Below are positions 10,546 to 64,000 of a DNA stretch of 64,000 bases, piece after piece. The translations under genes and the position numbers were made by a program. The notes under the pieces are model-generated. The model ran no database searches. It worked only from the letters and a program-made list of their open reading frames with translations, and was not told the DNA's origin. Source of the stretch: Escherichia coli (GTDB lineage: Bacteria; Pseudomonadota; Gammaproteobacteria; Enterobacterales; Enterobacteriaceae); assembly GCF_051903065.1 (NCBI RefSeq), contig NZ_CP178438.1; one strand, given 5' to 3'. Numbering within the stretch: the stretch's first letter is position 1; each line of letters starts with the position of its first letter.

Positions 10546-10634
10546 TGTAGGCCGGATAAGGTGCTTGCACCGCATCCGGCATCAACGCCTGCACATTGTC
10601 GGATGCGACGCCGGGGCGTCTTATCCGACCTACG
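10546..10634. repeat. REP/BIME element (two inverted REP units) between phnE and phnD
   Basis: tgtaggccggataaggtgcttgcaccgcatccggca and gtcggatgcgacgccggggcgtcttatccgacctac read directly. Confidence 0.85.
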
Positions 10635-13104: not shown

Positions 13105-13665
<561 letters not shown>

Positions 13666-19284: not shown

Positions 19285-19337
19285 GCTGAAACGGATGGCC
19301 TGATGTGACGCTGTCTTATCAGACCAACAATTGAACT

Positions 19338-19354
19338 CTTAAGGTTCACTTAAT
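19338..19354 (+). promoter_or_regulatory. PmrA/BasR box upstream of pmrR
   Basis: CTTAAG-gttca-CTTAAT, an exact match to the YTTAAK-N5-YTTAAK direct-repeat consensus, about 45 bp upstream of the pmrR ATG. Confidence 0.7.
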
Positions 19355-19398
19355 CTCTGACGCGCATACTCTCCTCCAGGTTAACGGAGGAGAGTGCA

Positions 19399-19488
19399 AT
19401 GAAAAACCGTGTTTATGAAAGTTTAACTACCGTGTTCAGCGTGCTGGTGGTCAGCAGCTTTCTTTATATCTGGTTTGCCACGTACTGA
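19399..19488 (+). CDS. pmrR: Small membrane protein PmrR (29 aa)
   Basis: ATG preceded by GGAGG; MKNRVYESLTTVFSVLVVSSFLYIWFATY; below the ORF-track size cutoff; 3-prime end overlaps basS convergently. Confidence 0.8.
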   Translation: MKNRVYESLTTVFSVLVVSSFLYIWFATY

Positions 19489-20555
19489 TCTTTCTTCAGC
19501 CGTATCCAGGCGCGCGTGCCAGAAGTCTCTTGCCGGTTTTGCAGGAAAAACTGCCCGTGATGCAACTGTGTAATGCGGCTGACAATACTTAACCCCAGAC
19601 CAATCCCGCCATAACGGCTGTCCATTCGTACAAACGCTTTACTCAACTCCCCGCATTTACTCTCATCAATACCCGGTCCTTCATCTTCAACGGCCATGAC
19701 CGCTCCGTCATCTTCTTGCAGCTTAATCATAATGTTGCTGCCTTGCGGGCTGTAACGATGGGCGTTTTCTACCAGATTTCGCAATAACATCCGCAGCAGG
19801 GTTGCATCACCCTGAACGGTGATGTCGGCGGTGCTCTCTGGCAATAGCAGGGTTTGCTGTCGCTGGTCGAGCATGGTACTGAGTTCGTCATACGAGGGGA
19901 GAATGACATCTTCCAGCAGTTTTACATGTTGATAATTACCGGAAGAAAATGACTGTCCGGCACGCGCCAGTTGCAGCAGCTGGGAGACGCTCTCCATCAT
20001 CTGATCAAGCCGTGCCACTAACGGTGCTACATCAATGTGATGCGTTTTCGCCAGCAGTTCCAGATGCAAACGTACCCCCGCCAGTGGCGTTCGCAGTTCG
20101 TGCGCGACGTCAGCGGTAAACAACCTTTCGTTATCCAGCGTGCTGGTCAGGCGACTGACCAGATCGTTTAACGCCGAAACCACCGCTTCGATTTCGAGGG
20201 TGGCGCTGTGAATGGCAATGGGCGTTAAGTTGTCGGCGGTGCGCGCTTCCAGCTCTTTTTGCAGCTCCGCCAGCGGGCGGGTGATGCGGCGTACCGCCTG
20301 ATAGCAGATAAATAGCGTCAGGCTGACCATAAAGACGCCGGGGACAATCAGGCTGGCGACCGCCTCGCGGATCTCACGCATGATGTGGCGATCGTTGTTG
20401 CGATTGTCGCGTAGCGCCTGCTCAAACAGCTGAATCTGCTCGGTACTTTCATGCCATAGCCAGAAGACGCTGATCAGCTCAAACACCAACAAAATGGCCC
20501 CGATGGTCAATATCAGCCGTTGGCGCAGCGATATTGGTCGGCGCAGAAAACGCAT
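19464..20555 (-). CDS. basS: Sensor histidine kinase BasS (PmrB)
   Basis: 363 aa from the ATG at MRFLRRPISL; HAMP, H-box (DVAHELRTPL) and ATPase motifs; track ORF begins 3 codons earlier at a TTG. Confidence 0.9.
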   Translation of the reverse strand: MRFLRRPISLRQRLILTIGAILLVFELISVFWLWHESTEQIQLFEQALRDNRNNDRHIMREIREAVASLIVPGVFMVSLTLFICYQAVRRITRPLAELQKELEARTADNLTPIAIHSATLEIEAVVSALNDLVSRLTSTLDNERLFTADVAHELRTPLAGVRLHLELLAKTHHIDVAPLVARLDQMMESVSQLLQLARAGQSFSSGNYQHVKLLEDVILPSYDELSTMLDQRQQTLLLPESTADITVQGDATLLRMLLRNLVENAHRYSPQGSNIMIKLQEDDGAVMAVEDEGPGIDESKCGELSKAFVRMDSRYGGIGLGLSIVSRITQLHHGQFFLQNRQETSGTRAWIRLKKDQYVANQI

Positions 20556-49835: not shown

Positions 49836-49911
49836 TGGTGCCCGGACTCGGAATCGAACCAAGGACACGGGGATTTTCAATCCCCTGCTCTACCGACTGA
49901 GCTATCCGGGC
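49836..49911 (-). tRNA. pheU: tRNA-Phe (anticodon GAA)
   Basis: Minus strand reads GCCCGGATAGCTCAGTCGGTAGAGCAGGGGATTGAAAATCCCCGTGTCCTTGGTTCGATTCCGAGTCCGGGCACCA, 76 nt with encoded CCA. Confidence 0.97.
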
Positions 49912-63814: not shown

Positions 63815-63821
63815 GCAATAA

Positions 63822-63858
63822 CGGTACGACAGCTGTGTCGTGCCGTTTGTTTTTTCTG
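63822..63858 (+). terminator. Intrinsic terminator downstream of ecnB
   Basis: Hairpin cggtacgacagctgtgtcgtgccg followed by tttgttttttctg. Confidence 0.8.
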
Positions 63859-63924
63859 CGATAGTCACAAAGGTAATAGTTGAAATTCCCCTGCCACCTG
63901 GCAAAATATCCGTTCAACCATCAG

Positions 63925-63975
63925 CTTTGCAGGACGACCTGCAAACGCGTCTTTTCACCGGGGACGGCCCCAATT
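63925..63975 (+). promoter_or_regulatory. Guanidine-II (mini-ykkC) riboswitch upstream of gdx
   Basis: Two short GC hairpins with ACGR tetraloops, GCAGG-ACGA-CCTGC (63929-63942) and GGGG-ACGG-CCCC (63960-63971), 17-nt linker, then GGAG and an ATG at 63990. Confidence 0.65.
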
Positions 63976-63989
63976 CTCCGGAGCCTGAT

Positions 63990-64000
63990 ATGTCCTGGAT
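63990..64000 (+). CDS. gdx: First codons (MSW...) of the guanidinium exporter gene gdx (sugE), cut by the window end
   Basis: ATG TCC TGG at the expected distance after ecnB and the riboswitch; only 11 nt present. Confidence 0.5.

Follow-up and report, generated by a model that had tools for sequence, protein, structure and literature searches.

We identified positions 63926–63972 on the plus strand of the window (the whole 64,000-nucleotide stretch of E. coli DNA analyzed here), together with the Shine-Dalgarno (SD) sequence that follows, as the guanidine-II riboswitch of the E. coli gdx (sugE) mRNA, where it lies in the 5′ leader; we assign this reading a probability of about 0.97. An Rfam 15 scan of the whole 64-kb window yielded a match to RF01068 (Guanidine-II, mini-ykkC) at exactly these coordinates with 49.3 bits and E = 9.5e-7 (E = 4.5e-9 in a local scan), and the match spans the full model, from position 1 to position 48 of 48. 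The preliminary description of this DNA had proposed a guanidine-II architecture and had named a sub-threshold covariance-model score as grounds for abandoning it; the score obtained exceeds the family gathering score of 32, and therefore the proposal was not overturned on that ground and its guanidine-II interpretation is supported. Family membership is thus a direct result of the present analysis. Guanidine-II riboswitches have been defined by ACGR loops, two G-C pairs, a linker of 7–40 nt and translational ON switching (Reiss and Strobel, PMC5558903), and they reside in the 5′ leaders of genes for Gdx/SugE exporters or guanidine carboxylases, which was the setting against which the window was compared. 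Both hairpins of the element carry an ACGR tetraloop, the 14-nt linker lies inside the class range (it is 9–34 nt long across 117 related loci among the matches listed), and the element is positioned ahead of a Gdx/SugE exporter gene with the SD just 3′ of the second hairpin. The same Rfam scan gave no match in the window to guanidine-I (ykkC), guanidine-III or guanidine-IV. Matches to sucC, RT-17 and CRISPR-DR20 in the region (16.8–16.9 bits, E = 0.4–0.9) were far under threshold and were set aside as chance hits.

The element is composed of two hairpins, P1 and P2, which are joined by the linker and followed by a spacer and the SD, all on the plus strand. The Rfam alignment, the predicted folds and covariation place P1 at 63926–63945, with an 8-bp stem formed by a 5′ strand TTTGCAGG (63926–63933) and a 3′ strand CCTGCAAA (63938–63945), a pair also given as UUUGCAGG/CCUGCAAA, and an ACGA tetraloop at 63934–63937. 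This hairpin was seen in all folds with a pair probability of 0.95–1.0, and it can be extended across a C bulge by the pairs G63924–C63948 and C63925–G63947. P2 (63960–63971), likewise placed by the Rfam alignment, has a 4-bp stem made entirely of G-C pairs, GGGG (63960–63963) with CCCC (63968–63971), and an ACGG tetraloop at 63964–63967; the folding energy of the isolated hairpin is −7.1 kcal/mol. Two conserved G-C pairs close each tetraloop, within GGACGACC at 63932–63939 and GGACGGCC at 63962–63969. The two-hairpin observation itself is confirmed, since two short GC-clamped stem-loops with ACGA and ACGG loops, as noted in the preliminary description, can be read directly from the sequence. 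The linker CGCGTCTTTTCACC (also given as CGCGUCUUUUCACC) occupies 63946–63959 and is 14 nt long by the Rfam alignment and by the RNA fold, in which three U-A pairs extend P1; Schamber et al. count it as 13 nt (PMC9300104), and the published models assign a putative anti-SD to it (PMC9300104, PMC9094411). The 17-nt linker first reported holds if P1 is limited to its inner five G+C-rich pairs (GCAGG/CCTGC), which were the only ones counted at the time, but with the full 8-bp P1 the figure becomes 14 nt. The spacer AATTCTCC (also given as AAUUCUCC), read from the sequence at 63972–63979, separates P2 from the SD by 8 nt, precisely the distance of about 8 nt originally estimated. The SD itself is GGAG at 63980–63983, located 6 nt upstream of the start codon; Fig. 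1 of PMC13064478 gives it the same label, and GGAG(CC) is kept among enterobacterial orthologs.

The gene controlled by this leader starts at 63990 (ATG TCC TGG AT..., 63990–64000, plus strand; placed by annotation and profile matches), and its ORF is cut at the window end (64000). In full it is 318 nt long and encodes 105 amino acids, and the complete protein matches PF00893 and the NCBIfam SugE equivalog NF008512, the latter at 193.5 bits. Together with the K-12 MG1655 annotation of this gene as gdx, ‘guanidinium exporter’, the equivalog match bears out the earlier naming of the truncated gene as gdx. We take its product to be a guanidinium/H+ antiporter of the small-multidrug-resistance family. 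The window is part of the E. coli chromosome: several complete genomes of the species match its last kilobase with 100% identity, and the locus is found in 5425 of 5426 complete genomes, with the gene order epmB, efp, ecnA, ecnB, sugE, blc, ampC in the RefSeq annotation. No riboswitch feature is annotated here in the two RefSeq records examined, in agreement with the earlier remark that such an RNA feature escapes gene-centred annotation. Upstream, the ecnB CDS ends just 5′ of an intrinsic-terminator-like hairpin with a T-run at 63820–63855 on the plus strand (a 12-pair stem at 63820–63847 followed by TGTTTTTT), which is the end of the upstream transcription unit and lies outside the riboswitch. 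Between this hairpin and P1, a putative sigma-70 promoter of gdx was recognized at 63880–63907 on the plus strand by consensus match only (TTGAAA, 16 nt, TG-CAAAAT); it has 9 of 12 consensus matches with a TG ahead of the −10 element, and judging from its position it would begin the gdx transcript approximately 10–15 nt 5′ of P1. An alignment with the Citrobacter-type plasmid copy of the gene described below showed that the −35 hexamer and much of the promoter region are preserved there.

In 5157 E. coli records the 101-nt leader shows an identity of 99% or more, and P1 and P2 are the same in all E. coli and plasmid copies aligned, giving no covariation signal within these. Given this lack of stem variation, diverse bacteria were scanned with one genome per species, using a pattern that fixed the loop cores only, GGACGACC-N12-40-GGGGACGGCCCC. 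The scan returned at least 120 loci, of which 117 were usable among the matches listed, and in 85 of these 117 a SugE-like ORF follows closely on the same strand. In the same 117 loci among the matches listed, 4.43 of the six outer P1 pairs, which lie outside the pattern, can form, as compared with 1.99–2.50 when the strands were slid and 2.57 ± 0.11 when they were permuted. The formal covariation set, drawn from 80 SugE-associated loci among the matches listed, comprised 67 distinct P1 sequences, and the test covers P1, P2 being set by the search pattern. The results showed that, in these 67 stems, 84.0% of P1 cells hold standard pairs (58.3% in shuffled and 31–50% in slid controls) and that double-sided changes number 162 against 56 expected, the observed values being matched by none of 500 shuffles. 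The outermost two P1 pairs are the least preserved, with 46% and 63% of cells paired; all eight pairs form in E. coli. The unconstrained outer P1 stem thus covaries strongly in these sequences. The idea that the leader contains two G+C-rich hairpins that arose by chance and have no function could draw on the small size of the element and on an energy z-score of just −1.7 for the region, but we consider its probability negligible given the Rfam E-value, the single occurrence of the bare pattern GGACGRCC-N10-40-GGACGRCC in the window where 0.01 were expected (100 shuffles), the stem covariation and gene association across phyla, and the ligand binding already in print (PMC9300104).

The E. coli gdx guanidine-II riboswitch is already known and is a published model example of its class, since direct studies of this very aptamer have been published. 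Schamber et al. applied NMR and SAXS to a 49-nt E. coli sugE aptamer, Gdn49, which they partition into P1 (23 nt), linker (13 nt) and P2 (13 nt) and whose P1 is the counterpart of P1 in the window (PMC9300104); their numbering, in which A14 and G44 are the fourth loop bases, maps onto window positions 63924–63972, G44 being 63967. They found that two extra G-C pairs form in a guanidinium-dependent manner, that the stronger site is the ACGA loop of P1, that the ACGG loop binds the ligand poorly in the isolated P2 hairpin, and that Gdn49 is prone to dimerise in vitro (PMC9300104). A 47-mer was examined by smFRET in the work of Fuks et al., whose article cites 5NDI, a further counterpart of the window P1, as the crystal structure of an E. 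coli P1 homodimer (PMC9094411). A guanidinium-dependent loop-loop (kissing) interaction and a proposed translational control have been described for the E. coli leader (PMC9300104, PMC9094411, PMC5558903, PMC13064478), and the class as a whole is regarded as a translational ON switch (PMC5558903, PMC12186494). In addition, Kojima and Ito reported that the loss of 20 bp (−30 to −11 of gdx) in strain ZX-1 accompanied constitutive gdx expression, and that Cs+ resistance was enhanced by guanidinium, which they attributed to riboswitch induction (PMC13064478). The ZX-1 deletion corresponds to window positions 63960–63979, i.e., P2 plus the spacer.

Compared with the K-12 representative of the E. 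coli sugE/gdx element, the window is alike in all defining features, including an SD placed 8 nt past P2 and ahead of gdx, and both hairpins are identical to those of K-12 and of the 5NDI, NMR/SAXS and smFRET constructs. The two versions differ in one linker base outside the conserved nucleotides: the window has G63949, whereas C is the base in K-12 and in most E. coli. Rfam scores the window at 49.3 bits and the K-12 version at 50.4; in a spread sample, just about one-fifth of genomes carry an exact match to the window. The guanidine-II riboswitch of Pseudomonas aeruginosa, for which a P2 crystal structure is available (PMC5558903), shares the class, the SugE-like gene type and the proposed translational ON logic with the E. 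coli element, whereas the partners proposed for its SD are the linker and the 5′ strand of P1 (PMC5558903), to which the SD of E. coli has weak complementarity. Guanidine-I (ykkC), -III and -IV have the ligand in common with guanidine-II and overlap with it in their regulons (Gdx exporters, guanidine carboxylase), but their folds are larger and unrelated, guanidine-I and -IV acting on transcription and guanidine-III having a pseudoknot (PMC12186494).

In the switching mechanism proposed for this leader, one guanidinium ion would be bound by each ACGR tetraloop, and the C and G of both loops would then pair mutually to give a head-to-head kissing loop between P1 and P2. Kissing would lock P2, and the resulting leader shape would leave the SD and the start codon free, such that a build-up of guanidine would lead to more translation of the exporter. 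Ligand binding and loop-loop pairing in vitro are established in print for the E. coli aptamer, which is one linker base away from the window; what masks the ribosome-binding site when the ligand is absent we infer from published schemes and from folding. Membership in the family is uncontested, and the weak points are limited to this mechanism. The OFF-state schemes in print differ, with pairing between linker and SD in one (PMC9300104, PMC9094411) and occlusion of the SD by the two hairpins in another (Fig. 7 of PMC13064478). Leader folding was modeled with a nearest-neighbour model and five different 3′ ends. With ends up to +36, the predicted accessibility of the SD was approximately 0.25–0.28, and it was alike in the unconstrained leader, in the leader with both hairpins enforced, and after the ZX-1 deletion or the deletion of strain 167 described below; a switch was not reproduced by this modeling. 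Once at least 60 nt of the ORF were included, the SD was predicted to pair with ORF nucleotides 64019–64024 in every state. Across the 80 SugE-associated loci, enforcing P1 and P2 raised the predicted accessibility of positions −15 to −4 from 0.38 to 0.43, a small shift (up in 41 of 80 loci; Wilcoxon p = 0.007) that is too weak to support a mechanism.

These folds point to a variant of the same riboswitch in which P2 itself, instead of the linker, would mask the ribosome-binding site, and kissing would trap P2 and free the SD and AUG; we hold this as a tentative possibility. The predicted pairs run from G63961–C63965 to GUCCU at 63992–63996 (the G of AUG and codon 2), in a helix that excludes the P2 hairpin, from G63966–C63968 to GCC at 63983–63985, and from CC at 63970–63971 to the GG of the SD at 63980–63981. 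When the leader is folded as far as +36 of the ORF, the minimum-free-energy structure contains this alternative helix and retains P1. The duplex of P2 with the SD/AUG region is predicted at −12.4 kcal/mol, as compared with −7.1 for P2 folded as a hairpin and −3.5 for the linker with the SD, and in the short leader model P2 forms with a probability of 0.08 in the apo state. The same helix is predicted in most enterobacterial orthologs shown (Citrobacter, the plasmid copy in Providencia, Pseudescherichia, Superficieibacter and others), and across the 80 loci the 3′ strand of P2 is the top predicted partner class of the ribosome-binding region, with a summed probability of 1.81 versus 1.20 for the linker. 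Moreover, these nucleotides are lost in both the ZX-1 (63960–63979) and the strain 167 (63947–63975) deletions, and ZX-1 is constitutive even though its linker is complete (PMC13064478). However, the support for masking by P2 is prediction only, and the predicted SD accessibility equals that of the state with P1 and P2 formed, because another local hairpin forms. Other pairings prevail in longer transcripts, P2 stays folded in the apo model of two orthologs (L014 and L123), and a natural change in the P2 loop, G63967C in UPEC-455U, is not compensated at 63984. The partners, i.e., the SD and the Met-Ser-Trp codons, are also constrained for other reasons, and P2 was preset by the search pattern. 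The fuller claim, that in E. coli as well as in related enterobacteria the ribosome-binding site is masked not by the linker but by the strand and loop of P2 (63961–63971), through the GG/GCC of the SD region and GUCCU, seems to us rather doubtful on these models. If true, masking by P2 would account for constitutive expression after deletions that remove P2 and for the broad preservation of ATGTCCTGG at the gdx start, and it would predict that plasmid copies without P1 are locked off.

The published alternative, in which part of the linker (63946–63959) would pair with the SD until P1 and P2, docking in response to the ligand, draw the linker away, we likewise consider doubtful for E. coli. 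It has been proposed for this aptamer (PMC9300104, PMC9094411), it has a structure-based analogue in P. aeruginosa (PMC5558903), and some linker pairing with the ribosome-binding region is predicted in the 80 loci (the value of 1.20 given above). Against it, the best duplex of the E. coli linker with the SD reaches just −3.5 kcal/mol, the linker was unused in folding when the SD was restricted to upstream partners other than P2, and expression in ZX-1 is constitutive despite a complete linker (PMC13064478), with the caveat that this deletion abuts the linker on the SD and would thereby prevent fold-back. A different kind of control, with P1 and the following CGCGUCUUUU acting as an intrinsic terminator or attenuator of transcription, was suggested by a simple terminator scan, which flags 63926–63945 plus a T-rich stretch (63926–63955, P1 and then CGCGTCTTTT). 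The T-run, however, is short and interrupted, with CGCG between it and the stem, and P1 is stable in all predicted states (0.95–1.0) and therefore could not switch as a terminator. Published accounts treat the class as translational (PMC5558903, PMC12186494), and the linkers of relatives range from 9 to 34 nt among the matches listed, the few inspected sharing no U-tract. A switchable terminator at P1 is thus very unlikely and was rejected on account of the interrupted T-run, the constant P1 and the translational nature of the class.

As a separate observation, the gdx start ATGTCCTGG (window 63990–63998) shows nucleotide-level conservation across many distant taxa, including Pseudomonas, Burkholderia and Enterobacterales (loci L007–L126), and the GUCC in it is complementary to the GGAC in the 5′ half of both hairpins. 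This preservation may reflect a regulatory pairing, or it may merely reflect Met-Ser-Trp and codon bias.

Natural variants of the leader were found on chromosomes as well as plasmids. Coverage of the leader falls below 80% in about 6 of the 5421 genomes with a match. E. coli strain 167, a urine isolate (NZ_CM132950.1; locus L004, 2547–2562), carries a natural 29-nt deletion equivalent to window positions 63947–63975, which takes out the linker and P2 so that P1 directly adjoins CUCCGGAG; an Rfam scan of this leader gave no guanidine-II match. The deletion resembles that of the laboratory strain ZX-1, which is constitutive for gdx. In UPEC-455U/190220 (locus L005, 227–273), the P2 loop is ACGC and not ACGG (window 63967), which departs from the ACGR consensus, and the spacer carries a C-to-T change (window 63976); this leader still scores 41.9 bits. 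A Citrobacter-type gdx/sugE located beside blaCMY-2 on conjugative plasmids (e.g., the IncC plasmid pAPEC1990_61) has P1 and P2 identical to those of the window, the same SD and start context and an Rfam score of 47.2 bits, but its overall identity is approximately 78%, its linker is 1 nt shorter, and its spacer and upstream sequence have diverged. The intact Citrobacter-type aptamer is present in about 602 plasmid records. In 64 plasmid records the blaCMY-2-blc-sugE mobile segment ends within the P1 loop, such that plasmid backbone takes the place of the 5′ half of P1 and P2 alone remains; in one of these, the IncI plasmid pSTM709 (locus L003, 1441–1560), the annotation moves the start of the sugE CDS upstream (435 nt).

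The identification made here labels a regulatory RNA that carries no annotation in the two RefSeq records examined and adds no new biology. Its modest added value lies in the deletion in a clinical isolate, the 64 resistance plasmids with a halved P1 and a testable alternative for the OFF state. These by-products bear on gdx-mediated tolerance to guanidinium-type biocides, which could be inducible, constitutive or silent depending on the strain.

Other RNA features were encountered elsewhere in the window. The enterobacterial sRNA family STnc630 has a full-length match at 19330–19495 on the plus strand (181.8 bits), and a tRNA-Phe (GAA) gene lies at 49836–49911 on the minus strand. Six matches to naRNA4 (CssrE) were found at 13176–13659 on the minus strand and 10550–10630 on the plus strand; five of them form a tandem array with a spacing of approximately 100 nt, which looks like a REP/BIME-type repeat cluster.
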